Of a DNA stretch of 64,000 nucleotides, positions 28,320 through 46,584 are shown piece after piece. Source of the DNA: an uncultured Clostridia bacterium. Its GTDB lineage: Bacteria > Bacillota > Clostridia > Christensenellales > CAG-917. The position numbers and the translations under genes are program-made. The stretch lies in contig CAKQUX010000006.1 in NCBI GenBank assembly GCA_934277645.1, forward strand, positions 11,576-75,575. The letters run 5' to 3'. Each line of letters begins with the position of its first letter. Positions within the stretch are counted from its first letter, which is position 1. A model generated the notes under the pieces. The model had not been told where the DNA came from. It did not search any database and saw only the letters and a list, made by a program, of their open reading frames with translations.

Positions 28320-28381
28320 GTGCATAGGTATAAGTTTTGATAAAACAAAAGATTGAATTTAACGTAAAGGAGTTGACTTGT

Positions 28382-28528
<147 letters not shown>

Positions 28529-28826: not shown

Positions 28827-31544
28827 ATGACACACAGCAATATAAAAAAATCAAAGATATTTATGCTGATACTCGGTCTTGCGATGTGCCTTGCGCTTAT
28901 GCTCGGCATTGCGATGGCAAGCGGCGCTACAACTGCGTTTGCAGGCGGCGAAACTGACCCTCGCACACCGATCAAAACGATTATCGCAACGTCAAATATT
29001 GATGACATTGTGGGCTTCGATAAAAGCGTAGAAAGACCTACTTTTAATATAACCGAAGGTTCGCCGGCTTATTTCTTAGCTTATGGTGGTAGTTGCAACT
29101 GGAAAATTAAGACCGCGACAGGCTGGGAAAATTATACGGGCGCAGTGTTTAAGGAAGGGACTTATCAATATGTTACTCAAATTCGTATCGACGAACCGGA
29201 AGGTACAACTTACGTACTTGACAAAAACGGCATTACCGTCACGGTAAACGGCGTAAAATGGGCAGATAATTCCATCCCCAGCGTTGATGATACGTATTCG
29301 TGCGATTGGGTCTTTTCAAAAGAGTATGAAGTCGTTGCTCCGGCAGGCACGCCGTTGGAATTTTTTAAAAACAATAATTGGGATATCGACAGTGCTTATA
29401 TAAACCAAGCGATAACTGCGTTTTCGGTGGCAGACGGCGCGTCGGGCGGCACAAAACCTTACACGTTCTCAAAGGTTTCAGGCCCCGAGTGGCTTGAAGT
29501 TGCGGCAGACGGCATGGTTTCGGGAACGCCGACAGCTGTGGGCGAAAACGCAGACCTTGTGATTAAGGTCACGGACAGCGCAGCGGATCCCGCCTCAACG
29601 GAAATCACCCTGAAAGTCGGCAATACGTACGTTCTCCCTGCAGACCGCACAGTAATCAGCGTAATCAGGGCAACTTCAAACATCGGTGAAAAAATCGGTT
29701 ATGGAAAATCCGTGGTTAAACCGTCGTTCACTTTGACGGAAGGCACGCAGGCACATTTTTCCGGCATCATGGGTCACTGGAATAAGAAAGTAGGAACGGA
29801 GTGGAAAAGATATGAAGAAGCGACGTTTACGGAAGGAACTTACATGTATTTTGACCAGCTTCGCGTCGATGACGAATACGGAATGACTCACGTACTAAAC
29901 AAAGGCGGCGTATCCGTTTATATCGACGGCGAGTTGTGCGCAGACAATCAAATACCCGATGTATATGACACTTATTCATTAATATACGTTGAAACCGCTG
30001 AATATGAAGTTTTGGGTGCGACGAACATAACCGAAGCTCTTGTGCCTATAAGTGACCTTGACGGAAAAGTGTACAGCGGAGCGGCGCAAGAGCCGACCTT
30101 TGGCGGAACGCTTGCTTTGGGCACAGACTACGAAGTTAGCTATGCAATAGCCGCAAACGGTGAACTTAGTTCGGACGGCAAGCCTGTAGGCGCAGGAAAG
30201 TACTCTGTTACCGTTACGGGCAAGGGCGCTTATAAAGGAAGTTTCACCAAAGACTTTGTGATTGCAAAGGCAGAACAATCTGCACCGATACTAATAGGTT
30301 ATGGTCCTACAACCGATGGCGGAAGTGACGGCAAAATAACGAGAACGACTAAGGATATGGAATATGACGTCGATTCGTTGTTTACAAATCCAATAGATTG
30401 CGCGGACGGTGAAACCACAGGACTTACTGAGGGTGTGTATTTCGTTCGCATTAAGGAAACGGACAATTATAAGGCAAGCGCTACTTTTCAAGTGGAAGTC
30501 AGACTTTACAAGGTTACCGTGGAAGACGGCGCCGGTACAGTCGTTAAAAAATATAGAACAGGCGATACCGTCACTATAACGGTCAACAAGCCTAAGGGCA
30601 AGGCGTTGAATAGATGGGTCTATGGGGGCGTTACCATTCCTGACGTAACGAAAGAAACAATAACGTTTGAAATGCCGAACTGCGACGTTAGTTTGGTCGC
30701 CGTTTTCGAGGACGTTGAATATAGCATAACCGTCACAAACGGAACGACAACCTTGAACAAGGCAACGTATCAAACGGAAGTTATCGTAAAGGCAAACGAT
30801 CCTGCAACCGATATGAACTTCGACAAGTGGGAAGTTACGGGACTTGATACGACGGATATGGACCTAACCAAAACGGAAATCAAGTTCAATATGCCTGACG
30901 GAAACGTAACATTTAAGGCAACTTACTTGGCTGTTAGAAAGTATGATATAGTCGTTGTGGACGGCACGAAAGATATATCCCCTGCAAAAGCAGGCGAAAC
31001 CGTGACCATAACCGCAAACCCTGCTCCTTCGGGAAAAGTCTTTGACAAATGGACTTGCGAAACGGCAGGGGTTACGATTGAGTTTGCAAGTGCGACAAGC
31101 AAACAAACAACCTTTGTAATGCCTGCAAGCGACGTTAAGATTCAAGCGCATTTCAGAGATATAGAAGCTGCTCCGTCTATTGAAATCAAAGTCAACGGCG
31201 GAACAGGCGCAGGAACTTATAAGCAAGGCGACAGCGTAACCGTTACCGCTGATGCGCCGTCGGCAGGAAAAGTCTTCAAATGCTGGAAAGACGGTAGCGG
31301 AAAAATCGTCAGTACGAACAAGAACTATACCTTTACGGTAGACGGCGAAATTAACCTTACCGCCGTATACGACAATGCGGCAGCGCCTGAAATCGAAACG
31401 GACGGCAGCGGCAAGGGCGGCAGCGGAAAGAGTGGCGGCACGATAAGCGGCGGCAAGGTCGCAGGCATAGTAGTGGGCGTGTTAGCGGCAGTAGGAGCAG
31501 CTGTGGCGGCAGTCGTTATAGTCATAAAGAAAAAGAGAAAATAA
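28827..31544 (+). CDS. cell-surface repeat protein with signal peptide and C-terminal membrane anchor
   Basis: 905 aa, AAGGAG RBS. Signal peptide ...ATTAFA-GGE. Two copies of a ~125-aa N-terminal module. A putative Ig-like segment (GGTKPYTFSKVSGPEWLEVAADGMVSGTP). Four ~70-aa InlB-B-repeat-like units (Y.VTV.DG.....Y..GD.VTITA..P..GK.F..W). Gly-rich spacer, TM helix VAGIVVGVLAAVGAAVAAVVIVI, then KKKRK. Confidence 0.88.
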   Translation: MTHSNIKKSKIFMLILGLAMCLALMLGIAMASGATTAFAGGETDPRTPIKTIIATSNIDDIVGFDKSVERPTFNITEGSPAYFLAYGGSCNWKIKTATGWENYTGAVFKEGTYQYVTQIRIDEPEGTTYVLDKNGITVTVNGVKWADNSIPSVDDTYSCDWVFSKEYEVVAPAGTPLEFFKNNNWDIDSAYINQAITAFSVADGASGGTKPYTFSKVSGPEWLEVAADGMVSGTPTAVGENADLVIKVTDSAADPASTEITLKVGNTYVLPADRTVISVIRATSNIGEKIGYGKSVVKPSFTLTEGTQAHFSGIMGHWNKKVGTEWKRYEEATFTEGTYMYFDQLRVDDEYGMTHVLNKGGVSVYIDGELCADNQIPDVYDTYSLIYVETAEYEVLGATNITEALVPISDLDGKVYSGAAQEPTFGGTLALGTDYEVSYAIAANGELSSDGKPVGAGKYSVTVTGKGAYKGSFTKDFVIAKAEQSAPILIGYGPTTDGGSDGKITRTTKDMEYDVDSLFTNPIDCADGETTGLTEGVYFVRIKETDNYKASATFQVEVRLYKVTVEDGAGTVVKKYRTGDTVTITVNKPKGKALNRWVYGGVTIPDVTKETITFEMPNCDVSLVAVFEDVEYSITVTNGTTTLNKATYQTEVIVKANDPATDMNFDKWEVTGLDTTDMDLTKTEIKFNMPDGNVTFKATYLAVRKYDIVVVDGTKDISPAKAGETVTITANPAPSGKVFDKWTCETAGVTIEFASATSKQTTFVMPASDVKIQAHFRDIEAAPSIEIKVNGGTGAGTYKQGDSVTVTADAPSAGKVFKCWKDGSGKIVSTNKNYTFTVDGEINLTAVYDNAAAPEIETDGSGKGGSGKSGGTISGGKVAGIVVGVLAAVGAAVAAVVIVIKKKRK

Positions 31545-33824: not shown

Positions 33825-34018
33825 GAATAATTCGATAGAGCTATAAACGCTAATTCGTTTTTAATTTGCAAACGACTTGCTATCTAAATAACGATTAACG
33901 ATTAAATTATAGGTAATTTATCAATGATAGCGTGACTTATCAAAAAGAGTGCGACTTGTCAAATGGTATTACGTTTTATATGCCGCTTAGTGTATTAGCA
34001 TAAAAAGTTAACGAAATT

Positions 34019-34069
34019 AAAAACGTGTTAAAAAAGACCTTATGAGTTCCATAAGGCCTTTTTTACGTT
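34019..34069 (+). repeat. copy 1 of a ~50-nt repeat that contains an intrinsic terminator
   Basis: AAAAACGTGTTAAAAAAGACCTTATGAGTTCCATAAGGCCTTTTTTACGTT, with stem CCTTATG 34038-34044 / CATAAGG 34050-34056 and a T-run. Near-identical copy at 36547-36596. Confidence 0.9.
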
Positions 34070-34169
34070 ATTTAATACTAAATTCAATTACTAATATTTA
34101 AAATCTTTAATACTAAACACGATTACTAACGTGTAATTCGTAACAACGTTTAGGTTTTGCAAAATTTTT

Positions 34170-34367
34170 TTAATAGGGTTGCAAACCCAAAATATAATCG
34201 GTTGACGTCTGATAAAGTTTTGCAAGCAAAATCAGCGCGGATAAGGGAAGTTCGCGCTTTCCGTTTTCGTATTGCGAATAGGTATTTTGTTTGACGTGAA
34301 GATAGTCGGCAACGTAGGATTGCGTGTAGCCGAATTCTTCGCGAAGTTGCTTTAATCTTAAATTCAT
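34170..34367 (-). CDS. XRE-family helix-turn-helix transcriptional regulator (module 1)
   Basis: 65 aa from ATG 34367: MNLRLKQLREEFGYTQSYVADYLHVKQNTYSQYENGKRELPLSALILLAKLYQTSTDYILG, a typical HTH_3 pattern. TATAAT lies 6 nt upstream of the ATG, with no RBS. Confidence 0.9.
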   Translation of the reverse strand: MNLRLKQLREEFGYTQSYVADYLHVKQNTYSQYENGKRELPLSALILLAKLYQTSTDYILGLQPY

Positions 34368-34398
34368 AAACAAATTATAATTATCGCATTCCGTGATA

Positions 34399-34427
34399 TT
34401 GACAAATATCTCAAAATGAGATAAAAT
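34399..34427 (+). promoter_or_regulatory. promoter of lipoprotein gene 34460 with a palindromic operator in the spacer
   Basis: TTGACA 34399-34404, 17-nt spacer, TAAAAT 34422-34427. Palindrome TATCTCA-AAA-TGAGATA at 34407-34423. Confidence 0.75.
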
Positions 34428-34459
34428 TACGACATAAAATAAAAAGCAGGAGAAGAAAT

Positions 34460-36181
34460 GTGAAGAAAAAATTATTTACGTTTTTATGTTTGGCAATGTG
34501 CGTAATTTTATGCATAGCTCTTTGCGCTTGCGGCGAAACGTCGGACAGCGATAATGGCAAAACGCCTACGGGCGGTACGGAAACCGGCGGTTCGGGAACA
34601 GGTGAGAGCGGCGGTTCGACAGGCGGCTCTGGAACTGGAGAGAGCGGCGGTTCAACGGGCGGTTCGACGATTGAAAACGACGATCCGTTGCCTACTGCGG
34701 CGCAAGTCGTCGAAGCAAGACAAGCGGTTTGCGATTTGAACGAAGAGAATTACGATTTTTCGTTGAAAATCAACGGAACGCTGAACTATCAAGGTTTTAA
34801 CGGCACGGCGAACGCAAACTATGAAGGAAAGTACAGATACAACAAAACGACAAACGATTTGAGCTTTTATCGTGAGACAAGCGGAATTTTGCTCAGCGAT
34901 TCGCAAGAGTACATTTACACCGAAAACGGCTCAAAAATTAAAATCGTTGCAAACGAAAAGGGAAAAATCAAAAAGGTGTCCGTCGTCGGCACAAACGACA
35001 AAGGACTCAGCCTTGTCAACCTTCCGTTTGTTAAACTTGTTGACGCGCTCAAAGCGGAAAACCTTATCGATATCAAACTTAACGGCAGCGGAAACGGCTT
35101 TAAGTATCAGGCAACGTTGAAGTTGGAGTCGGATTTTTCTGCGCTTCAAGGCATTTACGACGCGCTTGCAAAGTTTGACACCGATATCGAGCTTAGCGGC
35201 GTTACGTTTACGAATCCGAACAACGGCATAGTCGTTTACTTCAATATGGACGGCGACGAGCTTAAAGAATTTACGTTCGGTGCGGAAATTAAAGTTCCTG
35301 TCGCAGGGCAGCTCGTTAGCTTTAAAATTACTTACGAACACAAACTCGGAAGCGGCAACGTTTTGCCACCGTCGATAAAGAGTTTCAAGCTCGGCGAGAA
35401 TTGCAGCGACGATATTGCCGTAATCAACAACGCTCTTGCCACTTTGAAAAACTATGACGCATATTCGCTTGACGTTGCGGCTATCAACGATTTTGACCCG
35501 GGCTGGAACGTGACCGCAACCGTAGACAAATTTTTGTCGAGAGTTTACAAGAATACCGTAGACGGTTTTGTGAACTTCAACGATACCTACGAATACGTCG
35601 CTCACACCGAAACGGAAGGCAAGGAAACTTATAAGTACACAATCGGAAATATCGAGGACGGAAGCGTTTATATCGTTTCGAGAAAGGGCAAAAACACCGT
35701 AACTCCGCTTTCGGACGTCAGCGTCGATACGCGTTTCGATTATCTTACAGCGCCGTTTATTATCGACGCAAACAAAGTCGATTGTCTTTCAAAAACGATT
35801 GCCGACGGTGTAACTACCTATCAAATCGGCATTAAAGACGAGTATACGGTCGCAATGCAAGACAAGATTCTCGAAATGGTAAATTCAAACAACGTCGAGG
35901 GCGTTATAAAAGCCGAAAACTATTTCAACAACGAGTTTTACAACATTAAAAGCTCGGAACTTATCGTGACTATGCGCAACGGAAAAATCGAATCGATTAC
36001 GGTAGAAACAAACGTCAAATATTGCCCGACGGACGGCGAGTGGGTTGATTCAAACGTTACGCTCAAAAACACGCTTCAACTTTTGGTCAACTCAAATCTC
36101 GACAAGGCAAAGAAATACACCGCTCCAAGCAGTACGGGCAACGTTGTCGGACTTAGCTCGGTAAGCAAAGCAATCAGATAG
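34460..36181 (+). CDS. lipoprotein of unknown function (module 1 cargo)
   Basis: 573 aa. GTG start 8 nt after AGGAG (the adjacent ATG at 34458 runs straight into TGA). Lipobox ...CIALCAC-GETSD. Gly/Ser/Thr linker with a 36-nt tandem duplication (GGSGTGESGGST x2). The remainder is beta-rich with no recognised domain. Confidence 0.85.
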   Translation: MKKKLFTFLCLAMCVILCIALCACGETSDSDNGKTPTGGTETGGSGTGESGGSTGGSGTGESGGSTGGSTIENDDPLPTAAQVVEARQAVCDLNEENYDFSLKINGTLNYQGFNGTANANYEGKYRYNKTTNDLSFYRETSGILLSDSQEYIYTENGSKIKIVANEKGKIKKVSVVGTNDKGLSLVNLPFVKLVDALKAENLIDIKLNGSGNGFKYQATLKLESDFSALQGIYDALAKFDTDIELSGVTFTNPNNGIVVYFNMDGDELKEFTFGAEIKVPVAGQLVSFKITYEHKLGSGNVLPPSIKSFKLGENCSDDIAVINNALATLKNYDAYSLDVAAINDFDPGWNVTATVDKFLSRVYKNTVDGFVNFNDTYEYVAHTETEGKETYKYTIGNIEDGSVYIVSRKGKNTVTPLSDVSVDTRFDYLTAPFIIDANKVDCLSKTIADGVTTYQIGIKDEYTVAMQDKILEMVNSNNVEGVIKAENYFNNEFYNIKSSELIVTMRNGKIESITVETNVKYCPTDGEWVDSNVTLKNTLQLLVNSNLDKAKKYTAPSSTGNVVGLSSVSKAIR

Positions 36182-36411
36182 TTAATAGTTTTTATAGATT
36201 TGACGACAATTTGAACTGTTAGCAATAAAAACTATTATGCTTTAAGCAGTTATGCAAACAGTCTATGCACTTTAAAATCGGTTTGTTATGGCAAACAATA
36301 TATGCTTAAAGATTGCTTTGTCAGTAAATCGTGTACTGTCAGATGAAATGTTTTGTTAGAAAACTATTAGTCAAATATGTTATGGGCGTTAAAGACGTTT
36401 AAGCATTAAAC

Positions 36412-36443
36412 AAAAAATCCGCAACTTGATTGCGGATTTTTTA
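36412..36443 (+). terminator. intrinsic terminator of lipoprotein gene 34460
   Basis: ATCCGCAA 36417-36424 / TTGCGGAT 36430-36437, A-run before and T-run after. Confidence 0.85.
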
Positions 36444-36546
36444 TGTCATGAAGTTTTTATGACGATTAGCGAATTTATAGATTTTAATCTGTTTGTCATT
36501 AGGATTTTAATTTAACAATACAAATACAATTTGAAACGACATAACT

Positions 36547-36596
36547 AAAAACGTGTTAAAGAGACCTTATGAGTTCCATAAGGCCTTTTTTACGTT
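36547..36596 (+). repeat. copy 2 of the ~50-nt terminator-containing repeat
   Basis: AAAAACGTGTTAAAGAGACCTTATGAGTTCCATAAGGCCTTTTTTACGTT. It is itself flanked by the direct repeat AATTTAACAATACA..AATACAATTTGAAACGACA (about 36509-36545 and 36630-36675). Confidence 0.9.
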
Positions 36597-36676
36597 TGAT
36601 GAACGTTTAAATTTAACAATGCAAATTTAAATTTAACAATACAGATATAAACAAATACAATTTGAAACGACACTTA

Positions 36677-36709
36677 TTGACATAAGAAACAAATGTGTAT
36701 TATAATACA
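36677..36709 (+). promoter_or_regulatory. TetR gene promoter with a palindrome over the -10
   Basis: TTGACA 36677-36682, TATAAT 36701-36706 (18-nt spacer). Perfect 14-nt palindrome TGTATTA-TAATACA at 36696-36709. Confidence 0.65.
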
Positions 36710-36757
36710 TACAAGAAGTGTTTTGTGGCATACGCAGCGTATGTCGTTGGAGAGAGT

Positions 36758-37318
36758 ATGGCAGAAGATAAAAGATGTAAAAAAACAAAAAAGGCAATCA
36801 AAAATGCCTTTATCGCAAAGCTCGCCGAAAAGAGTTATGATTCTATCACCGTTTCGGAAATCGCCGAACTTGCGGATATAAACCGCAAAACCTTTTACAC
36901 GCATTACGAAGGCGTGTTTGACGTGCTTGAAGAGATTGAGGACGACGTGGTGACAAGAGCAACCGAAATTTTTAAAGATATTAACGTTAAAGAGCTTATC
37001 GACAATCCTTATCCGCTTTTTGAAAGGCTGACAAACGCCCTGAGCGAAGAAGGAGCGTTTTTTGACAATCTTATGCTTGCAGGCTCGATGAACGACCTTG
37101 AAAGAAAAATCAAGGAAAGGGTAATCGACAATCTTGCCGCAACGTTTCCTAAGGAACATTTCAATCCGACCAAAGTCCGCGACGTGCTTGAATTTATCGC
37201 AGGCGGAATGCTTGCCGCCTATATGCGTTGGCTCGGCGACAAACAATCCGAAACCTTAGAAGAGCTTTGCATAACAATCGGCAAACTCGTCATCTACGGC
37301 GCAAAAGAGCTTGTTTGA
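36758..37318 (+). CDS. TetR/AcrR family transcriptional regulator
   Basis: Start moved to ATG 36758 (GGAGAGAG RBS). KKTKKAIKNAFIAKLAEKSYDSITVSEIAELADINRKTFYTHYEGVFDV is a TetR N-terminal HTH. Confidence 0.88.
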   Translation: MAEDKRCKKTKKAIKNAFIAKLAEKSYDSITVSEIAELADINRKTFYTHYEGVFDVLEEIEDDVVTRATEIFKDINVKELIDNPYPLFERLTNALSEEGAFFDNLMLAGSMNDLERKIKERVIDNLAATFPKEHFNPTKVRDVLEFIAGGMLAAYMRWLGDKQSETLEELCITIGKLVIYGAKELV

Positions 37319-37603
37319 ATTTAAGTAAAAATTTAAACAGGCCTTAATTGCATATTGCTTTAATTGCATATTGATTTAATCGCATATTATATAATATTGC
37401 GTTGATGTTGTGTTATAAAATCTATTACGTTTAGTTAAGAGTGCTGTGAGAGCGTCTAAACAGCAAAAATATGAGTGCGCAATTGCACCAATTAGTATTT
37501 GTATAGTCTTACGAGTTTTTTTGAGATTGTTTAATATGATTTAAAAGAATTAGATTGAAGTTTTAATATTTTAATAGAAGTTTTAGAGTTAAAAAGGAAA
37601 AAA

Positions 37604-37852
37604 TCACAAGTTGTTTGGCGGACATTGACTGCGTATATTTGTTTTATTGAAATTGCAGTCACGGTCAACAAGTTCGTCAAGCGTAATTTCGTAAAAATCG
37701 GCAAGTTTTATACATTCGGCAATATCGGGAAGGTGTATGCCTTTTTCCCAGCGTGAAAGGTTCTGTTGTTTAATTCCCGTCTTTTCAGCCAATTCTTGTT
37801 GCGTCAAACCCTGCATTTTTCTAAGAATTTTTAAGTTTTCACCGATTCGCAT
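37604..37852 (-). CDS. XRE-family helix-turn-helix transcriptional regulator (module 2)
   Basis: 82 aa: MRIGENLKILRKMQGLTQQELAEKTGIKQQNLSRWEKGIHLPDIAECIKLADFYEITLDELV. TAATAT lies 6 nt upstream of the ATG, with no RBS. Confidence 0.9.
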   Translation of the reverse strand: MRIGENLKILRKMQGLTQQELAEKTGIKQQNLSRWEKGIHLPDIAECIKLADFYEITLDELVDRDCNFNKTNIRSQCPPNNL

Positions 37853-37862
37853 AACGCTATAT

Positions 37863-37912
37863 TACACGAATAAGTGTATTTTTGTTGACTTTACACGAAA
37901 TCGTGTTAAAAT
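37863..37912. promoter_or_regulatory. divergent promoter/operator region of module 2
   Basis: Plus strand: TTGACT 37885-37890, 16-nt spacer, TAAAAT 37907-37912 (TG at 37904-37905), with palindrome ACACGA-AA-TCGTGT at 37893-37906 in the spacer. Minus strand: TAATAT 37864-37859, with palindrome TACAC-N6-GTGTA at 37863-37878 in its spacer. Both sites begin TTACACGAA. Confidence 0.7.
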
Positions 37913-37953
37913 AAAATTAAAAAAAGGAAAAATATGGAAAAAGGAGAGAAATT

Positions 37954-39564
37954 ATGCAAAAGAGCAAGTTTTTAATGATTTGTTTGATTCTGCTTATCGC
38001 AATATTATCCATAGGCATTTTAGCGGCTTGCGATAAGGATACGGAAGATCCGAATAAAAAATACACAATTCAATTTACCGTAAACGGCGAAATAAACCAA
38101 ATTGAGGTAAAGGATGGGGATTTATATTCGACAAATATTATTCCACAAAAATATGGATACATTTTTGCAGGATATTTTGATGCTCAAAGCGGTGGAACTA
38201 AGTATATCGATAATCAAGGTTCGGCTTTATCGGCATTCAACGACAAGAAGAATTTAGTATTATTTCCGCAATTTGTTGCAAAGGAATATACATTGATTTT
38301 GGATTATCAAGGTGCGGAAGTTACAGGGGGAAGAAGCATTAACGTTTGCTATGACGGAGACGTGAAGAATTTACCACTAAACTTATATGTCGAAAACAAA
38401 GATTTTATGGGTTGGTACACCGAACCTAATCGTGAGGGAATTCAAGTAGCTGATGCGTATGGTGTTCTGCCGCAGGCGGAAAAATTCAATAATGAATTTT
38501 ACGATATTCCGACTAACGGAAATAAGATTACTCTTTATGCAGGTTTCAGGGGCACGTTAAAAACTTTGACATTATATTTTAATGATTATAATGCACCTGA
38601 AGAGATAATCGTTGAATACGGAACAAACATCAATGACATCAAATCGACAACAAGAATAGATGGAAAAGGAGTTTTGAACTGGACAAAAACGAATGGAAGC
38701 ACTGAAGTGTTTGTCGGGAAAGTAACGACGGATATGGTTTTATATGCGTTGGAATATGCTCCTGTGCTGGACTTCAATGTTGATGGAGGAAAGGAAGTTA
38801 GCTCGATTATTGCTAAATCGGGGGCAAGTATAACGCTTCCTGTTTCTACAAAAAAGAATTATTCATTTGGCGGTTGGAAAACCGAAAGCGGCAGTCCCGC
38901 AAATTTTTCGACCATGCCGAATGAAAGTATGACTCTTGTCGCCATATGGAATCCAATTATATTTCTTAACGAACGCGGCGGCACAGACGTAGCGGATATA
39001 TGCCAAAGTGCAGGTACAAAAATAACTCTTCCGAAGACAAACAAAAACGGCTATGTTTTTGCAGGTTGGTATTTTGAAAACGGCGACGAATTTATCGAAT
39101 CATCTATGCCGAGCGAAAGCATAACTCTTATTGCAAAATATTATAAAATAGCGACTATGAAAAAAGTTTTATGTGAATCTAATACCCACGTGTCTTGTGC
39201 AATTAAAATTGAGGAAGACAAAAGATATATTATAGATTTGAAAGAAATATACAATGGAAAACCGATTAACGTTAAATTTAGCGGTCATTTGGTTGCTTAT
39301 CATGGGGCCGACAATAAAGAGTGCTATTTTCAGTTTTATAACGACGCAACTGTGAGCTCATCAAATTTAATAAAAAAATTCATTTTTAATGTTGGCCAAG
39401 TCAAGAAAGAATTTGACTATGAATTTGATTTCGAGCTAAACACAACGGAGATTTATTTATATTATGGTACAAATTTTTATGAGTACGGACTTAACCAAAA
39501 ATTATGTAGTATTTCTGATGTTTATATAAATATTGAGTATGTCGATACTACGGAAATATATTAA
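37954..39564 (+). CDS. lipoprotein with Listeria-Bacteroides (InlB B-type) repeat domains
   Basis: 536 aa, AAGGAGAG RBS, lipobox ...GILAAC-DKD. At least four repeats with the G(Y/F).F.GW(Y/K) signature (YGYIFAGYFD, KDFMGWYTEP, NYSFGGWKTE, NGYVFAGWYFE). C-terminal ~140 aa unassigned. Confidence 0.85.
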   Translation: MQKSKFLMICLILLIAILSIGILAACDKDTEDPNKKYTIQFTVNGEINQIEVKDGDLYSTNIIPQKYGYIFAGYFDAQSGGTKYIDNQGSALSAFNDKKNLVLFPQFVAKEYTLILDYQGAEVTGGRSINVCYDGDVKNLPLNLYVENKDFMGWYTEPNREGIQVADAYGVLPQAEKFNNEFYDIPTNGNKITLYAGFRGTLKTLTLYFNDYNAPEEIIVEYGTNINDIKSTTRIDGKGVLNWTKTNGSTEVFVGKVTTDMVLYALEYAPVLDFNVDGGKEVSSIIAKSGASITLPVSTKKNYSFGGWKTESGSPANFSTMPNESMTLVAIWNPIIFLNERGGTDVADICQSAGTKITLPKTNKNGYVFAGWYFENGDEFIESSMPSESITLIAKYYKIATMKKVLCESNTHVSCAIKIEEDKRYIIDLKEIYNGKPINVKFSGHLVAYHGADNKECYFQFYNDATVSSSNLIKKFIFNVGQVKKEFDYEFDFELNTTEIYLYYGTNFYEYGLNQKLCSISDVYINIEYVDTTEIY

Positions 39565-39582
39565 AATTTAGGAGGGAAACAT

Positions 39583-42500
39583 ATGAAAAAAAGAATTTTC
39601 TTAATGTTATTAATCATTAGTTTGCTGCTGGTTATTGCTGTTTTAACATTTACAGCTTGCAACAAGGAAGATTTGGGCGGACTTGTAAAGCCGAAAAATT
39701 TGCAATATGACGGTGCGGTTATCACTTGGGATAAGGTGGCGGTTGCAAGTTACTATAGTGTATCAATAAATGGCGGCGACAAACAGAGAGTAAACACAAA
39801 TTCCTTTACTTATAATGCAGAAGATAAGGAATTTACAGTTAAGGTAATAGCCGTAAATTCGGTTGGCGAACTAGGAATAGAGAAAACGTTTCATCCGCTT
39901 GAGAAAGTAAAGAACATTACTATAGCAAATGACGGTACGCTAAATTGGGATGCCGTTGTCGGAGCAAGCGAATATGAAATTAGAATAAACGGAAAAGTAT
40001 TATCCGATAAGTCGACAAGCAATGCTTATGACGCATTAGAAGCAGGTTCAAACAGAGTAGCTATAAAAGCAAAGGTGAAAGGTGACGATAGTTATTTCTC
40101 TTCTTGGAGCGACGATATAAATTTGTACATTTATAGTGCACCTCAAAGAGTCAAATATGATGGCGAAAAAATCACTTGGACGGGAAATGCACAGAAATAT
40201 GAAGTAAATGTAAATGGTCAAAAAACAGAAGTAAACGAAGCGTCTTTTGTTTATAACTCAAACAATCTAGATTTTGATGTCGAAATTAAAGCATTAGGCA
40301 ATTATGCTAATACCTATGATTCAAAAATAACTTCTATGGATTTTCACTATCTTGATAGTGTTAGGAACGTAAACATTGTTGACGGAGTTTTAACTTGGGA
40401 TAAAGTGAATGGTGCAACAGAATACAAGTTAAAAATTGACGGTGTGATACAAAACATAAAAATTGAGGATAACAGGTATGGAAAACTTCTTACGGGCAAA
40501 TCGCTTGACGTTCAACTTTTGCCGTATGCAGGAGAAAATTATTTCTCTAATTGGACAGAAACGAAAACAATTTATATTCTTGAAACGCCTGTTTTAAATT
40601 GGAATGCAGATCTAGAACTGGACGGATTAGCAAATAATAATTTGACTTGGAACTTGGTCAATGGGGCTGCGGGTTATACTGTTGAAACCAATTTTGATGG
40701 AAATATAAATAACGAATCTTTTAGTGCGGCTCAAGCCTCTTATGCTAATGCGTACACAAAAGTAGGCTTATATTGCATTAGAGTAAAGGCAGTTGCCGAA
40801 GGCGACGGGACATATAGTGATTCTAAATATTCAGAGGTTATCAAAATCGAAAGACTCGCCGCGCCTAAAGCCGTTGCAACTGGATTTATTGTTAGCGATT
40901 CATCAAATCTAAAAAGAGGGTTCACAGTAAATTACCAAGCCGTATCTAATGCGAGTGGCTATCAATTGTATAAAGATGGAGTTTTGCTTAACGGTAAAAG
41001 CGGTATCTCATTGTCGCTTACGGATAATGCGGTTGCCGATGATTCCGTTTCTGCCGAACAACAATATACTTATATGGTAAAGAGTATCGGAAGCGTTAAA
41101 AGTATTGGGTCGACTAAATACGTTACACTCTCTTGTTTGACAGAAAACGCATTATCTTTTAATATCATTGTTCAAGCAATGCCGACCAATTTAAATATGT
41201 CTGGATATAATGCGAGTTGGAATTCTGTTGCAGGAAATAACGGTTATTCTGTTAAGTACGCTTCTGCATTGATAGGAACTACTGCGGAAGTATGCGATTT
41301 GTCGACCATAAAAGCAGGTACATATGGTGTAAGTGTTTGTACAAAGGGTAATGGTGGAACAACGCTTCCGTCAAATTTTACGGCTGAAATGGCGGTTACG
41401 AGACTTGAGGCACCAAGTGGAATTAAAATTACTTATGGCTCGGGCGAGGGGGTGCTTACTTATGATGCAATTGCTAACGCTAAAAGCTATCAAGCTTTTC
41501 TCGATGCTAGTGAAACGGCGCTACCAGAGAATGCGTTTGATAATATGTATCAATACATAAAAGAATCAGGAACAACTCTGAATATGATTGCCGTAGCAAA
41601 TTACTATAATGATGCGAAAACCATATATTACATGTCTAGCGAAGCATCTCTTACGCAACAATTTATTAGGCTCGCGGCTCCTATCTTTCCTGATGGTGCT
41701 TTGGCAAACAGTAAAGAACTTTTATGGAATGCATCAAGCAATATTAATACCCAAGAATACACACCTACTTATGAGGTGTATGAGAGCGGAGTTATGCAAA
41801 CCGGCGGAGTCCAGAATGCTACGAAATATAATATTGAGCATTTTGACGGTGGAAATTCATACACGTTTAAGGTTAAAGCTGTAGGAAATGATAGCAAATA
41901 TCTTGATAGCGCAATGTCGAAAGATATAACGGTTTATAAACTTTCTACGCCTAATCTATACATACAGGATGGAGCGTATAAGTGGAATACTGTAGCAAAT
42001 GCAAGTTCTTATATATTAGAAATCGATGGTGAAAGAGTTAATAACGATATTCATGTTTCGGGTTCGACGTTTAGCTATAATCCGCTTTATACAAAAATAG
42101 GAACACATACTGTTAAGTTGTATGCGGTTGGTGATGGATATAGAAATATCAATAGTAATAACTTCGTATATAATCAAAATGTGAAATCACTTTATGCACC
42201 TGAAATTTCGTATAAATATAGTGATGACCAATTTGTCAACAGCGGAGCAATACTTGTTACGATTACCAAGGCATCAGATAACGCAAAGAATTATCAATAT
42301 GAAATTGCAGGAGAAAGTATTGTTAGTTCTGAATTGAGTTGTTCAAAAACCATTGAAAGCGTTGGAATTTACTATATAAGAGTTAAGGCATTGGGAGGAA
42401 TTTTTGACAGTCATGAAAACTACTACATTGATTCGCAATATGTCGGTGGCAATGAAGGATATAAAATGGTCTTGCTTGCTCCGCCTACATTAAGCACTTT

Positions 42501-42750
42501 TTCGGTTAATTCTGATGGGGTAATAAAGTGGGGCACCGTGAGTGGAGCAAATGGTTATGATTATTTTTTAGCTAAAGGAGATAGCGATTATTCAGAAACA
42601 TTTATGCATGTATCTGCGGCTGCTTTGAATCCAATTAATGATTTTGGCAACTATAGAACCATTAAAATAAAAGTTCGCGCACATGGTGGTAAGCAAAATG
42701 TTGTTTCATCAGCTTGGGTAGAATACATTTGGGTAAATCCTAAAATGTGA
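39583..42750 (+). CDS. lipoprotein built of about 12 FN3-like modules
   Basis: 1055 aa, AGGAGGG RBS, 18 nt after the upstream stop. Lipobox ...LTFTAC-NKE. ~85-aa modules each carry (L/I)xW(D/N)xVxGAxxY (ITWDKVAVASYY, LNWDAVVGASEY, LTWDKVNGATEY, LTWNLVNGAAGY, ASWNSVAGNNGY, YKWNTVANASSY, IKWGTVSGANGY...). Confidence 0.85.
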   Translation: MKKRIFLMLLIISLLLVIAVLTFTACNKEDLGGLVKPKNLQYDGAVITWDKVAVASYYSVSINGGDKQRVNTNSFTYNAEDKEFTVKVIAVNSVGELGIEKTFHPLEKVKNITIANDGTLNWDAVVGASEYEIRINGKVLSDKSTSNAYDALEAGSNRVAIKAKVKGDDSYFSSWSDDINLYIYSAPQRVKYDGEKITWTGNAQKYEVNVNGQKTEVNEASFVYNSNNLDFDVEIKALGNYANTYDSKITSMDFHYLDSVRNVNIVDGVLTWDKVNGATEYKLKIDGVIQNIKIEDNRYGKLLTGKSLDVQLLPYAGENYFSNWTETKTIYILETPVLNWNADLELDGLANNNLTWNLVNGAAGYTVETNFDGNINNESFSAAQASYANAYTKVGLYCIRVKAVAEGDGTYSDSKYSEVIKIERLAAPKAVATGFIVSDSSNLKRGFTVNYQAVSNASGYQLYKDGVLLNGKSGISLSLTDNAVADDSVSAEQQYTYMVKSIGSVKSIGSTKYVTLSCLTENALSFNIIVQAMPTNLNMSGYNASWNSVAGNNGYSVKYASALIGTTAEVCDLSTIKAGTYGVSVCTKGNGGTTLPSNFTAEMAVTRLEAPSGIKITYGSGEGVLTYDAIANAKSYQAFLDASETALPENAFDNMYQYIKESGTTLNMIAVANYYNDAKTIYYMSSEASLTQQFIRLAAPIFPDGALANSKELLWNASSNINTQEYTPTYEVYESGVMQTGGVQNATKYNIEHFDGGNSYTFKVKAVGNDSKYLDSAMSKDITVYKLSTPNLYIQDGAYKWNTVANASSYILEIDGERVNNDIHVSGSTFSYNPLYTKIGTHTVKLYAVGDGYRNINSNNFVYNQNVKSLYAPEISYKYSDDQFVNSGAILVTITKASDNAKNYQYEIAGESIVSSELSCSKTIESVGIYYIRVKALGGIFDSHENYYIDSQYVGGNEGYKMVLLAPPTLSTFSVNSDGVIKWGTVSGANGYDYFLAKGDSDYSETFMHVSAAALNPINDFGNYRTIKIKVRAHGGKQNVVSSAWVEYIWVNPKM

Positions 42751-42766
42751 GTATTATTAATTTATC

Positions 42767-42799
42767 AAAAAAGGTCACGGATTCTGCGTGGCCTTTTTT
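42767..42799 (+). terminator. intrinsic terminator of the module 2 operon
   Basis: GGTCACG 42773-42779 / CGTGGCC 42787-42793, A-run before and T6 after. Confidence 0.85.
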
Positions 42800-42906
42800 G
42801 ATTGAATGATAACGCAATAAACAACAATGTGAATGTTTAAGTTTATATTTATTATAAATAACTCTTTGTTTCGCAAATAATTATTTTTACAAGTTTGGCG
42901 TTTTGT

Positions 42907-42935
42907 TTGACATCGAAATTAAATAGCAATATAAT
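42907..42935 (+). promoter_or_regulatory. consensus sigma-A promoter of thrS
   Basis: TTGACA 42907-42912, 17-nt spacer, TATAAT 42930-42935. The leader is only about 35 nt. Confidence 0.75.
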
Positions 42936-42974
42936 TTCTATACTATGGCGTTTGTATAGCCAACTGGAGGGTTT

Positions 42975-44912
42975 ATGGAACTTATTTTGAAAGACGGAAG
43001 CAAGATTTCCGCACAAGACAACATCAGCGCAATCGAAGCTGTTAAACTTATCAGCGAGGGATTGGCAAGAAACACGTTAGTTATCAAAGTCAACGACAAG
43101 TTCGTTCCGTTTGACGAAAAACTTAGCGGCGAGTGCAAAATCGAGGCGTTCACCTTTGCCGACGAAATCGGTCGTGAAGCCTATCGTCACACTTGTTCGC
43201 ACATTTTGGCGCAAGCCGTCAGAACGGTTTTCCCGACTGCGTTGTTTGCAATCGGACCTGCAATCGCAAACGGTTTTTACTATGATTTTGAGTTTAAGAC
43301 TCCTATTTCTCAAGAAGACTTTGCAAAAATAGAAGCCGAAATGACGAAAATCATCAAGGCGAATTTCCCTATCGTCAAAAGCACAAAGACGAGAGCGGAA
43401 GCGGAAAAGTTTTTAAGACAAATCAAGCAACCTTACAAGGTTGAACTTTTGGGCGATATTCCTGAGGGCGAAGAAATTTCGTTCTATACGCAAGGCGATT
43501 TTGCCGACCTTTGCAGCGGACCGCACCTTAACAGTACGGGCAGAATTAAGGCATTCAAACTTACTTCGCTCACCGGCGCATATTGGCGCGGAAACGAAAA
43601 GAACAAAATGCTTACCCGTATTTACGGCACGGCGTTTGACAAAAAGTCCGACCTTGACGACTATCTCGTAAAGCTCGAAGAAGCCAAAAACCGCGACCAC
43701 AACAAACTCGGTCGTGAACTCGGCATTTTTATGACGGACGAAAACGTAGGCAAGGGCTTGCCGCTTATTATGCCAAAAGGCGCAAGAATGATTCAAATTC
43801 TTCAACGCTTTGTCGAAGACGAAGAAGAACGCCGCGGCTATCTTTTGACAAAGACTCCGTCGATGACAAAGAACAATCTTTTCATCACAAGCGGACACTG
43901 GGATCACTATAAAGACAAAATGTTCTGGATGGGCGCAGAAGGCGAGGACGACGGCATATTGTGCCTTAGACCTATGACTTGTCCTTTCCAATTTACTATC
44001 TACAAAAACGGACTTAAAAGCTATCGTGATTTGCCTATCCGCTATGCAGAAACGGCGCAAGAATTCCGCAAGGAAGCGTCGGGCGAAATGCACGGACTTA
44101 TCCGCATAAGACAATTCACTTTGGCTGACGGACACATTGTTTGTACCCGTGACCAATTAAAAGACGAATTTGCAGGCGCGGTAGACCTTATCAAATATCT
44201 TGCGACTTGCTTAGGACTTGACGACAGCATTTCGTTCCGTTTCTCACGTTGGGACCCGAAAAATGCCGACAAGTATATCGGCACCGCGGAAGAGTGGGAA
44301 AAGACGGAAAGCACAATGAAGAAGATTTTGGACGACCTTAACATCGATTATAAGGAAGAGTGGGGCGAAGCCGCATTCTACGGTCCGAAACTCGACGTTC
44401 AAGGCACAAACGTTTACGGCAAGGAAGACACGCTCTTCACCGTTCAAATCGACTTTGCGTTGGCTGAGCGTTTCGATATGGTGTACGTCGACGAAAACGG
44501 CGAAAAAGTGCATCCGCTTATCATTCACCGTTCGTCAATCGGTTGCTACGAAAGAACGCTTGCTATGCTCATCGAAAAGTACGCAGGCGCATTCCCGCTT
44601 TGGTTTGCTCCTATTCAAGCGAGAGTTATGTCGCTTACCGACAGAACCATTGACAATGCAAAAGCCGTCGCCGACAAACTTCGCTACAACGGGTTCAGAG
44701 TCGAAGTAGATACAAGAAGCGAAAAAATCGGCAAGAAGATAAGAGAGGCTCAACTTGAAAAAGTTCCTTATATGCTTATCATCGGCGACAAGGAAGCAGA
44801 GCAAGGCGTTGTTGCGGTTCGTTATCGTTCGGAAGGCGACCTCGGAACTATGACGCTTGACGACCTTATGGCAAGAATGAGCGAAGAAGTCAGAACAAAA
44901 AAGAACAACTGA
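42975..44912 (+). CDS. thrS: threonine--tRNA ligase
   Basis: 645 aa, GGAGGG RBS. N-terminal TGS-like domain, editing-domain HTCSHILAQA, class II core (RGFTQDDAH-like region QFTLADGHIVC), C-terminal anticodon-binding domain. Confidence 0.96.
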   Translation: MELILKDGSKISAQDNISAIEAVKLISEGLARNTLVIKVNDKFVPFDEKLSGECKIEAFTFADEIGREAYRHTCSHILAQAVRTVFPTALFAIGPAIANGFYYDFEFKTPISQEDFAKIEAEMTKIIKANFPIVKSTKTRAEAEKFLRQIKQPYKVELLGDIPEGEEISFYTQGDFADLCSGPHLNSTGRIKAFKLTSLTGAYWRGNEKNKMLTRIYGTAFDKKSDLDDYLVKLEEAKNRDHNKLGRELGIFMTDENVGKGLPLIMPKGARMIQILQRFVEDEEERRGYLLTKTPSMTKNNLFITSGHWDHYKDKMFWMGAEGEDDGILCLRPMTCPFQFTIYKNGLKSYRDLPIRYAETAQEFRKEASGEMHGLIRIRQFTLADGHIVCTRDQLKDEFAGAVDLIKYLATCLGLDDSISFRFSRWDPKNADKYIGTAEEWEKTESTMKKILDDLNIDYKEEWGEAAFYGPKLDVQGTNVYGKEDTLFTVQIDFALAERFDMVYVDENGEKVHPLIIHRSSIGCYERTLAMLIEKYAGAFPLWFAPIQARVMSLTDRTIDNAKAVADKLRYNGFRVEVDTRSEKIGKKIREAQLEKVPYMLIIGDKEAEQGVVAVRYRSEGDLGTMTLDDLMARMSEEVRTKKNN

Positions 44913-45141
44913 TTTTAAAGGAACAACCGATTTTAACGCAAAACCGATATTTCATAGATAAAGCGGCAAACGACAATCGACTTGCAGAAAAATCGATATG
45001 CCAAAAAACGTAGCACGGCTAAACGCTATGCTAAAAAGTGTAAAATAAACCGTTAAAAACGTGTGAAAACGTTGAAATATCAAACAAAACACGTTAAACA
45101 TAGCAAACAAAATCGGTAAAACGTGTAAACAAAAAACAAAA

Positions 45142-45166
45142 GGCATCGCTTGGCGACGCCTTTTTA
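45142..45166. terminator. bidirectional terminator shared by thrS (+) and the zinc-ribbon gene (-)
   Basis: GGCATCGC 45142-45149 / GCGACGCC 45153-45160 (one mismatch), A-run upstream and T-run downstream. Confidence 0.8.
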
Positions 45167-45324
45167 CGTTTTATTTCATATTACATTTTTATTACGCTTT
45201 TTGCGGTGGCATTATTGATTTTAAGTTTATTGCCGCAAATCGATTGCATTGTTAAGTTAGATTTAATTTTGCCGTTAAATTTAATCGATTAGCGATTTAT
45301 CGTATATTGCCGCCGATAGCCGCT

Positions 45325-46209
45325 TTAAAGATTGTTGACTTTTTTATAAAGTTTGTTTTTTTGAAGTCTTTCAAATGCCGCTCTTTGTTCGGCGTTTCGC
45401 CTTTCAATGTTTCGCTTGCACTCATTCACTTCGCGTTTGGCGGCGTTTACGACTTTGCCGACAGGGTAGGCTTGTCCAAAGCCTAAACCTATGCTCGATA
45501 TTGCAAAACATATCGTCAAAAGGTACAAAAAGTTTGAATTGAGTACGGCAGCCAAAATCGGCGAGATGATTGCAATCAAAGCCAAAATCGACGCTCCGAC
45601 AATGCCGCCTGCATATTTTTTCTTTTCTTCCATCAAAGAAAAACGATGATTTGAAATAATTCTTGCGTCTTCGGTATTTTGGGCTTCGTTTATTACGGTG
45701 TTCTTTTTATATACGATAAATTCGACGGCGTCCGCTAAATAATCGTTTACTTCGACGCTCAGAGTTTGCGCTTCCGAACTTTTTATGAGCGAAAGACTTT
45801 TTGCAATTCTTTTAAGCGGTTCGAGAAGTTTGTTCGCCTGTACGGGGTCGTTTTCGCGGTCGATTTGTTTAGGAAGCGTTGCTTTAATACACTGATAGCC
45901 TACGTTGTAGCCGCGTACGTCGTACGGGTCTTTGTCAATCGCCAATTTGCTTTGGGTGAAAGCGTTTTCATAATCCTGCACGGACAAATATTTTTCGGCG
46001 CTGCTAATATAGTCGTCGGCGTCGCTTTGCAAATTGCCGTTTACGATTTTCACGACGTTTGTTGTGTAGTTGTTCGTGTTGTTTATTGTTTGATTGATTT
46101 GTTCGTTGACCACTTCCGTTCCGCAAAAAGAACAGAATCTTTTTTTCTGATTTTCGTCAAATTCCAAGTTTGCTCCGCATTGCGGACAAACCATTGCGAC
46201 AAGTGGCAT
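45325..46209 (-). CDS. zinc-ribbon membrane protein of unknown function
   Basis: 294 aa, AAAGGAGAA RBS. N-terminal CPQCGANL...CSFCGTEV zinc ribbon, a helical (TPR-like) middle, two predicted TM helices (GGIVGASILALIAIISPILAAV, LYLLTICFAISSIGLGFG) and a basic coiled C-terminus. Confidence 0.8.
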   Translation of the reverse strand: MPLVAMVCPQCGANLEFDENQKKRFCSFCGTEVVNEQINQTINNTNNYTTNVVKIVNGNLQSDADDYISSAEKYLSVQDYENAFTQSKLAIDKDPYDVRGYNVGYQCIKATLPKQIDRENDPVQANKLLEPLKRIAKSLSLIKSSEAQTLSVEVNDYLADAVEFIVYKKNTVINEAQNTEDARIISNHRFSLMEEKKKYAGGIVGASILALIAIISPILAAVLNSNFLYLLTICFAISSIGLGFGQAYPVGKVVNAAKREVNECKRNIERRNAEQRAAFERLQKNKLYKKVNNL

Positions 46210-46259
46210 ATATCGGTTCTCCTTTTTTGTAAATTTTCTTTACTTATTTGTATGACAAA

Positions 46260-46288
46260 ATAATATCTCAAAATGAGATATTTGTCAA
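46260..46288 (-). promoter_or_regulatory. promoter+operator of the zinc-ribbon gene, near-identical to 34399-34427
   Basis: Read on the minus strand: TTGACA (46288-46283), 17-nt spacer, TATTAT (46265-46260). Palindrome TATCTCA-TTT-TGAGATA at 46264-46280. ATATTGACAAATATCTCA is identical to the module 1 site. Confidence 0.75.
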
Positions 46289-46412
46289 TATAATTTCACA
46301 ATTGAATTACGCTTGTCCGCCTTTTTAATTCGCTTCGCCTTAAAACGATAAGTATAAATTAAAAACGAAGCGACTTTGAAGATGTAGAAAAGTTTAGATA
46401 AGGATAGGGCAC

Positions 46413-46437
46413 AAAAAAACACAGCCATAAGCTGTGT
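46413..46437 (-). terminator. intrinsic terminator of dinB
   Basis: CACAGC 46420-46425 / GCTGTG 46431-46436. The plus-strand A7 at 46413-46419 gives a T7 tail on the minus strand. Confidence 0.8.
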
Positions 46438-46584
46438 AAATCATCGATGACGATTGCTTTAAAATTTATTGGTTGGAATGTAGGCGGAAAGTAGCAAATT
46501 GCTAAATTGCTGAAAACGGCGAAATGCTAAACAACCATTGCTTTCGGGTGGTAATTTACGCATTAAATTTTGCTATATTTTAAG

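Follow-up and report, generated by a model that had tools for sequence, protein, structure and literature searches.

A small Cro/CI-type protein as the probable repressor of its own gene and of a divergent surface-lipoprotein operon in the Christensenellales

Introduction

What does a DNA-binding protein of only 82 residues control when its gene lies back to back with a two-gene lipoprotein operon? The question is raised by a 64,000-nucleotide stretch of DNA from an uncultured Clostridia bacterium, referred to here as the window, which lies on a human-gut (Hadza) metagenome contig whose closest genomes are metagenome-assembled genomes of Christensenellales. The gene, here called XRE2, faces two lipoprotein genes that will be referred to as cargo 1 and cargo 2. 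Christensenellales are common gut bacteria associated with health; they are difficult to work with, and the control of their surface is poorly understood. A literature search on this operon, or on XRE control of surface proteins in Christensenellales, found nothing specific. An earlier note on the window, made by reading the sequence, had described the locus as one of two switch modules with the same design and different operators, and its interpretation proved largely right. The analysis described here suggests that XRE2 is a small Cro/CI-type protein that probably represses both its own gene and the divergent surface-lipoprotein operon. Each element of the design has a precedent. The wider interest lies in the modularity of the family and in an apparent interchange with invertons on one surface operon.

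The putative repressor gene and its predicted operator sites

XRE2 (37604..37852, minus strand) encodes a predicted DNA-binding protein of the HTH_3 (Cro/CI) type (Pfam HTH_3, E=1.6e-18). The five-helix HTH_3 domain, PF01381, spans residues 7-61 and scores above the Pfam threshold (66.9 bits against a cutoff of 23), and the rest of the layout is a 17-aa tail that is not conserved. A sequence search of the PDB gave the N-terminal domain of ImmR (7t8i, E=3e-8) as the best match among solved structures. NCBIfam and PHROGs returned generic repressor families alone, under their cutoffs, with phage repressors as the top matches.

The control region between XRE2 and the operon is compact (60 bp). A promoter scan places the cargo promoter at 37885..37912 on the plus strand, where TTGACT (37885-37890) is followed by a 16-nt spacer and TAAAAT (37907-37912), with 10 of 12 matches to the consensus and a TGn immediately 5' of the -10 (an extended -10). 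The spacer contains ACACGAAATCGTGT, and the palindrome ACACGA-AA-TCGTGT at 37893-37906 is found in it base for base as the earlier note had read it. The predicted distal operator, TTACACGAAATCGTGTTA (37891..37908), is centred at -47 from the XRE2 ATG and occupies this spacer; it is the stronger copy, with one mismatch to the consensus. A weaker copy, the predicted proximal operator, is ATACACTTATTCGTGTAA on the minus strand (37862..37879), centred at -18 from the ATG. This copy, which departs from the 23-site consensus at three positions, overlaps both the -10 and the spacer of the XRE2 promoter; its dyad core, TACAC-N6-GTGTA, lies at 37863-37878, where the second site had been called before. 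Both sites start with TTACACGAA, at 37862 and 37891, and the two 18-bp dyad copies are 29 bp apart. When the 64-kb window was searched with the consensus at up to 3 mismatches, the distal operator was the sole match, against 0.16 expected by chance, and no second XRE2 operator was found. An Rfam scan of positions 33800-47000 detected no known RNA family and thus no riboswitch or leader RNA.

The control block is also well conserved at the syntenic locus of a second species, L016, in which the XRE2 ortholog likewise lies beside thrS. From 37853 to about 37914, 60 of 62 positions are identical, versus about 50% identity, with indels, in the adjoining cargo 5' untranslated region. For the proteins, identity between the two species falls from 94% for ThrRS to 85% for XRE2, 75% for the FN3 protein and 58-60% for the Flg_new protein.

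A family of cassettes with one scaffold and many operators

Are these sites particular to one locus? A genome scan with an alignment of XRE2 relatives gave a family set of 79 loci, mostly from Christensenellales, in which the divergent genes were called by anchoring on Shine-Dalgarno (SD) sequences. One promoter scaffold is common to 55 of 96 distinct related upstream regions. Its first half consists of an ATTATA-like element (the reverse complement of the divergent -10), a dyad and [A/T]GTCAA[G/C] (the reverse complement of the divergent -35); about 5 nt, a second copy of the dyad and a -10 hexamer make up the second half. The sequence of the dyad varies by locus and tracks the recognition helix. 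The helix IKQQNxSRWE goes with the operator TTACACGA, TSHQNIxRWE with TGCACAAAT, IPQSTISAWE with TAACAGAA, LKQQMISWWE with TACATAAA and ISRVNYTRYE with GTACA-N5-TGTAC, and further helix/operator pairs obey the same rule. Loci with like helices have dyads in common. The dyad in the spacer matches the downstream region of its own locus at 9.45 of 11 positions, versus 8.12 of 11 for loci with unlike helices. The earlier note had argued from two modules that the design belongs to a modular family and is not a coincidence, and the shared scaffold and the covariation of operator and helix bear this out.

For XRE2 and its nearest relatives the picture is consistent. The 18-bp consensus TTACACGAWWTCGTGTAA, built from 23 sites, fits all relatives with the helix I[K/S]QQN[L/I]SRWE. 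In four leaderless lineages (the window, L016, L003-6 and L007-10) the two sites have their centres at -47/-48 and at -18 relative to the ATG; in relatives led by an SD sequence they are 28-29 bp apart and displaced according to leader length. In every case the distal site matches better, with 0-3 mismatches versus 3-5 for the proximal site.

The cargo can be exchanged under an unchanged switch. Outside the species, the nearest relative of XRE2 is 77% identical and has the same operators and the same leaderless geometry, and it faces a different cargo, a 1098-aa LRR_5 lipoprotein (locus L003). This is the kind of swap that the earlier note had proposed to look for among relatives. The converse, a changed switch on a kept cargo, is also found, since at least six operator classes occur on the same operon, as described below. 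LRR_5 surface proteins are the cargo in five loci. In many cassettes built on this scaffold the sole divergent gene encodes either a small DUF6809 protein of some 80-100 aa or a protein of about 95 aa that is rich in Cys; such cassettes are stand-alone two-gene units among housekeeping genes (L017, L018, L023, L026, L032, L038, L039, L041, L042, L045, L049, L051, L057, L063, L072, L073, L074 and L086). The helix/operator pairs on a constant scaffold could aid the search for a specificity code of HTH_3 proteins and could supply orthogonal repressors.

In the loci of P0006 (L007:7500-7900), a divergent TTGACG-operator-TAAAAT promoter reads into about 450 nt of hairpin-rich repeats in which no open reading frame (ORF) was called.

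The 5' end of XRE2

On the minus strand XRE2 is preceded by ...CGTGTAATAT AGCGTT ATG, in which the -10-like hexamer TAATAT (37859..37864, by direct reading) stands exactly 6 nt from the ATG. Reading of the 5' region revealed no Shine-Dalgarno or GGAG-like motif, and an in-frame start upstream of the ATG was sought and not found. The hexamer, its distance from the ATG and the lack of an SD sequence agree with the earlier note. An SD sequence precedes 27 of the 33 long ORFs of the window, which makes its lack at XRE2 unusual but not unique. Transcription is predicted to begin with the A of the ATG, at 37852; the XRE2 mRNA would probably start at its own ATG and be leaderless. The promoter has no recognisable -35, and the promoter scan gave no minus-strand promoter there at its threshold. 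The earlier note had described two -35 boxes overlapping back to back; this is right only in that the position expected for the XRE2 -35 overlaps the cargo -35, and a -35 box of XRE2 itself could not be recognised.

The family gives the best available evidence that the XRE2 mRNA begins at the ATG. A -10-like hexamer lies 19-21 nt after the GTCAA core in 39 of the 44 cassettes of this arrangement, and the distance from this -10 to the ATG is bimodal. It is 6-8 nt, with no SD sequence, in 10 loci (exactly 6 nt in seven of them) and 17-30 nt, with an SD sequence, in about 28 loci; distances of 9-13 nt do not occur, and 14-15 nt is found in only three loci. With the -10 fixed, the same promoter thus appears to precede either a normal leader or none, which supports the leaderless gene claimed by the earlier note as far as geometry can. 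The presence or absence of a leader within one family lets translation of the same regulator be compared cleanly, through natural variation, between leaderless and SD-led forms.

A DinB/IMS-family polymerase gene of the window (46585-47808, minus strand) likewise has TATAAT, 6 nt and ATG with no SD sequence, so the leaderless layout in this organism is not confined to XRE genes.

The cargo operon

Cargo 1 (37954..39564, plus strand) has the Shine-Dalgarno sequence GGAG at 37943..37946, by direct reading, and encodes a 536-aa lipoprotein in which InlB B-repeat (Flg_new) domains are combined with a putative jelly-roll of about 140 aa at the C-terminus. Its signal, ...GILAAC26, follows a K/R-rich n-region and a hydrophobic core and ends in the lipobox LAAC. 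PF09479 (Flg_new) matches it in 3 stretches, with 100 bits against a cutoff of 27 (E=7e-29). An AlphaFold2 (AF2) model with a mean confidence (pLDDT) of 86.8 was matched by Foldseek to the InlB B-repeat structure 2y5p (TMt 0.77). In the same search with the full-length model, the last ~140 residues resembled two TNF-like lectins, the N-terminal domain of BC2L-C (TMt 0.5-0.57) and PLTL (TMt 0.63), with E ~1e-3, and the C-terminal part also resembled phage receptor-binding or tail-tip domains at E ~1e-3. These matches suggest, as a lead and not as proof, a TNF-like or lectin-like tip at the C-terminus.

Cargo 2 (39583..42750, plus strand) begins 18 nt after cargo 1 with its own SD sequence and encodes a 1055-aa lipoprotein of 12 tandem FN3-like modules. 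Its signal, ...LTFTAC26, again follows a K/R-rich n-region and a hydrophobic core, with the lipobox FTAC; the L016 orthologs of both cargo lipoproteins have an LVAC lipobox. Pfam and PDB sequence searches with cargo 2 gave no informative match, and its fold was modelled with AF2 on a single module from its own 12 repeats. A hidden Markov model built from those repeats tiles residues 33-1054 with 12 modules of about 85 aa. The earlier note had identified both lipoproteins and their spacing correctly; its count of about 12 modules also stood, while the signature that it assigned to them, in the strict form W..V.GA..Y, is present in only 6 of the 12. The model of one module (pLDDT 81) was matched by Foldseek almost only to FN3 domains (TM 0.6-0.77, E >=0.013), with E-values that are modest for a domain of this small size. 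The operon is followed at 42754..42812 by a likely terminator, a hairpin and then a T-run, which coincides with inverted repeat I1 (26-nt arms, 81% complementary).

The operon is conserved widely, and homologs of cargo 1 are numerous (more than 180 full-length proteins of about 540-560 aa, 38-46% identical). In the contexts that could be read, a homolog of the 1055-aa protein comes after 1-4 tandem Flg_new copies, and in some cases a DUF3267 gene is next. The fast-evolving tip, the variable copy number and the conserved stalk fit an exposed adhesin or receptor. Judged from sequence and models, the cargo is probably a surface adhesin in which a variable Flg_new lipoprotein with a lectin-like tip would be combined with a conserved stalk of 12 FN3 modules. 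At one chromosomal site, from a DUF885 gene to the FN3 gene, two closely related strains differ in the number of tandem Flg_new paralogs, with one in L164 and two in L247.

Apparent alternative controls of the same operon

How is this operon controlled elsewhere? Seven lineages have a small, divergently oriented HTH_3 gene directly upstream of the operon and dyads within the cargo promoter: the window and L016, L087, the L164 group, the L172 group, L180, L186 and L249. These cover at least six operator classes, and several of them are again leaderless in geometry, for example CATAAT-GTCAAT-ATG.

Seven further lineages lack an XRE gene at this place. They carry near-perfect inverted repeats of 24-32 bp, with an asymmetric core, around a segment of 98-142 bp. 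A tyrosine recombinase gene lies beside the repeats in L165, L176, L179 and L248; the repeats occur alone in L166, L168 and L178. The segments are found at L165:1288-1451, L166:3060-3253 and L168:4793-4965, upstream of 1310 in L179 and upstream of 4141 in L176, and, counted from the start codon of the first Flg_new gene, at about -157 to -19 in L178 and at -234 to -65 in L248. The segments of L165 and L179 contain a promoter directed away from the operon, and that of L178 contains one directed toward the operon; the promoters of L178 and L179 were recognised by eye. A consensus promoter scan within the L166 and L168 segments found nothing at its threshold, and only L165, L178 and L179 are clear. 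By their sequence the segments are putative invertible promoters. Among the contexts read, no locus has both an XRE gene and inverted repeats, and in L183 a plain consensus promoter lies upstream of the operon. Around the window's own control region (37853-37953), flanking inverted repeats, a recombinase and the recombination-site motif of L165 and L166, for which the window was searched, were all looked for and not found.

Apparently subject to ON/OFF control by either of two interchangeable devices, this conserved surface operon is a likely contingency locus, for example as an adhesin, a phage receptor or an immune target.

Proposed mechanism and rival explanations

The arrangement of sites and promoters suggests how XRE2 may work. 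A dimer of XRE2 bound to the distal site would block RNA polymerase at the strong, near-consensus sigma-A promoter of the cargo, so that the operon would be OFF whenever XRE2 is present. At higher concentration XRE2 would fill the weaker proximal site and limit its own synthesis from an mRNA that would begin at the ATG and be translated with no leader. It is rather probable that XRE2 represses its own gene and the divergent operon in this manner.

A more speculative extension concerns the overlap between the strong cargo promoter and the weak XRE2 promoter that lacks a -35. Polymerase at one promoter may exclude polymerase from the other, and together with repression this exclusion could give two self-sustaining states, one with XRE2 high and the cargo OFF and one with XRE2 low and the cargo ON, that is, a protein-based switch. 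Bistability is possible; the promoter overlap, the absence of any sensor domain and the presence of putative invertons upstream of homologous operons all point to it, and none of them proves it. A putative invertible promoter on the homologous operon in other lineages fits the ON/OFF reading. The fullest form of the proposal is that the XRE cassette is a heritable bistable switch that has been repeatedly interchanged with invertons to phase-vary one adhesin operon, with many orthogonal repressor/operator pairs set on one scaffold. This is put forward tentatively, as less likely than not and more doubtful than the repression itself.

Several observations weigh against these proposals or limit them. 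The 29 bp between the centres of the two sites amount to about 2.8 helical turns, so two dimers would not lie on one face of the helix, and the spacing gives no ground to expect cooperativity. Nor does the distal site, which is at -47.5 from the presumed start, occupy a canonical position for an activator, which leaves positive autoregulation a conjecture only. The placement of that start at the XRE2 ATG would follow from geometry alone. Only an HTH domain was detected in XRE2, which has neither a sensor nor an oligomerisation domain. Both orientations of an inverted-repeat segment within one species were not seen among the loci compared. The better match of spacer dyads within their own locus than to loci with unlike helices has a Mann-Whitney p of ~1e-15, a value that is overstated because the sequences are related and non-independent; the pattern is still plain by eye. 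Finally, when the 101-nt AT-rich spacer between XRE2 and cargo 1 was shuffled with dinucleotides preserved, a palindrome arm of at least 6 appeared in 36% of the shuffles, a direct repeat of at least 9 in 20% and both in 7%. Taken by themselves the palindrome and repeat statistics within the window are weak and fall short of significance; the weight of the sites comes from their position and from the comparative data.

Could XRE2 respond to a signal instead? Many XRE repressors are relieved by partner proteins, and ImmR is relieved by ImmA. XRE2 may be a conventional repressor of this kind, relieved by an antirepressor, a protease or a ligand, with a graded response and no bistability. The operator and promoter anatomy would be the same as for the self-sustaining switch, and ImmR, the closest solved structure, is among the repressors that a partner relieves. 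Against this, no partner gene adjoins XRE2, which consists of an HTH domain only, and the inverted-repeat and recombinase elements upstream of the operon in seven lineages point to stochastic ON/OFF control and not to sensing. A signal-responsive repressor is judged unlikely, with enough of a chance to be taken seriously.

It is far less probable, and would be surprising, that XRE2 and its operators are the leftover immunity region of a prophage or integrative element, with the lipoprotein operon as an incidental neighbour. P0008, a 126-aa relative that shares the helix and operators, does lie beside an integrase, with three sites as in an OR region, and phage repressors are the best PHROG and NCBIfam matches of XRE2. 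The locus itself is syntenic beside thrS in two species and has no integrase or phage genes; its stronger operator lies exactly within the spacer of the cargo promoter, and XRE genes of different classes are paired with this cargo in seven lineages. In a search of 2.9 million viral contigs, the closest relatives of XRE2 are at most 49% identical, versus 55-85% in chromosomes of Christensenellales, and the scaffold is uncommon among the XRE genes of viral contigs. Both observations argue that the module is not a recent phage gene.

Activation of the cargo promoter from the spacer site, in the manner of MerR or of a class II activator, has a slimmer chance still. Activators do exist among small XRE proteins, namely the C proteins (PMC2632904), and the XRE2 promoter lacks a -35. 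The cargo promoter, on the other hand, is already near consensus, with a 16-nt spacer and an extended -10, whereas activation of the MerR type requires an over-long spacer of 19-20 nt, and a dyad that fills the space between -35 and -10 normally occludes polymerase. That the palindromes arose by chance in AT-rich intergenic DNA while the XRE gene regulates something else is scarcely credible given their position-specific conservation across relatives, the footprint conserved at 60 of 62 positions and the covariation with the recognition helix, even though 7% of the shuffles equalled both palindrome and repeat.

Comparison with known regulatory systems

The repressive arrangement favoured here resembles several known systems and coincides with none of them. 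Genes for controller (C) proteins commonly lack a leader and carry two sites that differ in affinity; they also occur outside restriction-modification (R-M) systems (PMC2632904). Like C.PvuII and C.AhdI, XRE2 is an HTH-only protein of about 80 aa; it has two predicted dyad operators of different strength upstream of its own gene, and its geometry fits a leaderless mRNA. Unlike them, it is accompanied by no R-M genes, its neighbours being a TetR gene, two lipoprotein genes and thrS, and its operator, TTACACGA..TCGTGTAA, is not a C-box. C promoters lack a -10, whereas the XRE2 promoter has a clear one. The strong site of XRE2 is set within the spacer of a strong divergent promoter, an arrangement that would imply repression of the cargo and not activation of a co-transcribed gene.

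The XRE-type repressor Rco of the Bacillus subtilis plasmid pLS20 represses its cargo and regulates itself from overlapping divergent promoters, Pc and Pr, of unequal strength (PMC4207663). As with Rco, the XRE2 gene has a weak promoter that overlaps a strong divergent cargo promoter. Rco is a tetramer and forms a DNA loop with two distant operators; its repression is lifted by the antirepressor Rap, and the cargo is a conjugation operon. XRE2, in contrast, has 82 aa, two sites 29 bp apart and no known partner.

The mRNA of lambda cI transcribed from PRM is leaderless and begins at the AUG. Lambda CI at OR also shares with XRE2 the divergent promoters with common dyad operators and the weak promoter of the repressor. 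XRE2 differs in having no C-terminal oligomerisation or S24 cleavage domain and no Cro-like counter-regulator, in having two sites and not three, and in facing a surface operon and not lytic genes. ImmR of ICEBs1, the best match among solved structures, represses a divergent promoter in a mobile element. XRE2 lies at a syntenic chromosomal locus with no adjoining gene for an ImmA-type (COG2856) protease, and no integrase is listed at the locus in the gene tables of the L001 and L002 contigs, nor is there an ORF between XRE2 and the TetR gene. A type II toxin-antitoxin system of the HipB or HigA kind was also considered; no downstream toxin ORF was found, and the NCBIfam antitoxin models scored far below their cutoffs. 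XRE2 was thus rejected as an R-M controller or as a member of the CI/LexA, ImmR/ImmA or antitoxin classes, since the defining feature of each was looked for and is missing.

Invertons underlie phase-variable surface structures of gut bacteria. Putative ones are similar to the cassette in position, directly upstream of the homologous operon in the seven other lineages, and would likewise set a surface structure ON or OFF. They differ in that control in the window would be exerted by a diffusible protein and not by rearrangement of the DNA.

Module 1 and other features of the window

The second switch module of the window, module 1, has the same scaffold with a different dyad, TCTCAnnnTGAGA, as the earlier note had said. 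Its regulatory gene, XRE1 (34170..34367, minus strand), is preceded by TATAAT, 6 nt and ATG. A tblastn search of the window for a close paralog of XRE2 found none; XRE1 was detected solely with the family hidden Markov model. The module-1 operator TATCTCAAAATGAGATA occurs exactly twice in the window, at 34407-34423 and 46264-46280, where chance would give 0.02. On the minus strand, the promoter TTGACA(46289-46284)-17-TATTAT has the second copy in its spacer and drives the gene of a 294-aa Zn-ribbon/transmembrane protein (45325..46209, minus strand), and XRE1 therefore probably has a second target 12 kb away.

Module 1, which comprises XRE1 and a 573-aa lipoprotein, is bracketed by the two copies of a 39-nt direct repeat (34031-34069 and 36558-36596, 97% identical) that holds a terminator-like hairpin, CCTTATGAGTTCCATAAGG, followed by a T-run. 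The pair may mark an insertion or duplication.

Downstream of XRE2 there are 285 nt of non-coding DNA and then a convergent TetR gene. The gap between the two stop codons contains three tandem 16-nt units of GCCTTAATTGCATATT (37341-37388). The TetR gene probably begins in fact at the ATG of 36758, for which an SD sequence is present. AT-rich repeats at 36505-36672 lie directly 5' of the TetR gene's promoter, which matches the consensus at 12 of 12 positions (36677-36706), and include an exact 22-mer, ACAAATACAATTTGAAACGACA, at 36520 and 36651. These repeats may be candidate TetR operators.

A further surface protein of the window, a 905-aa Flg_new_2 protein, is encoded at 28827..31544, and the gap 5' of its gene contains a short run (28337-28528) that encodes (ASKQ)n repeats in one frame.

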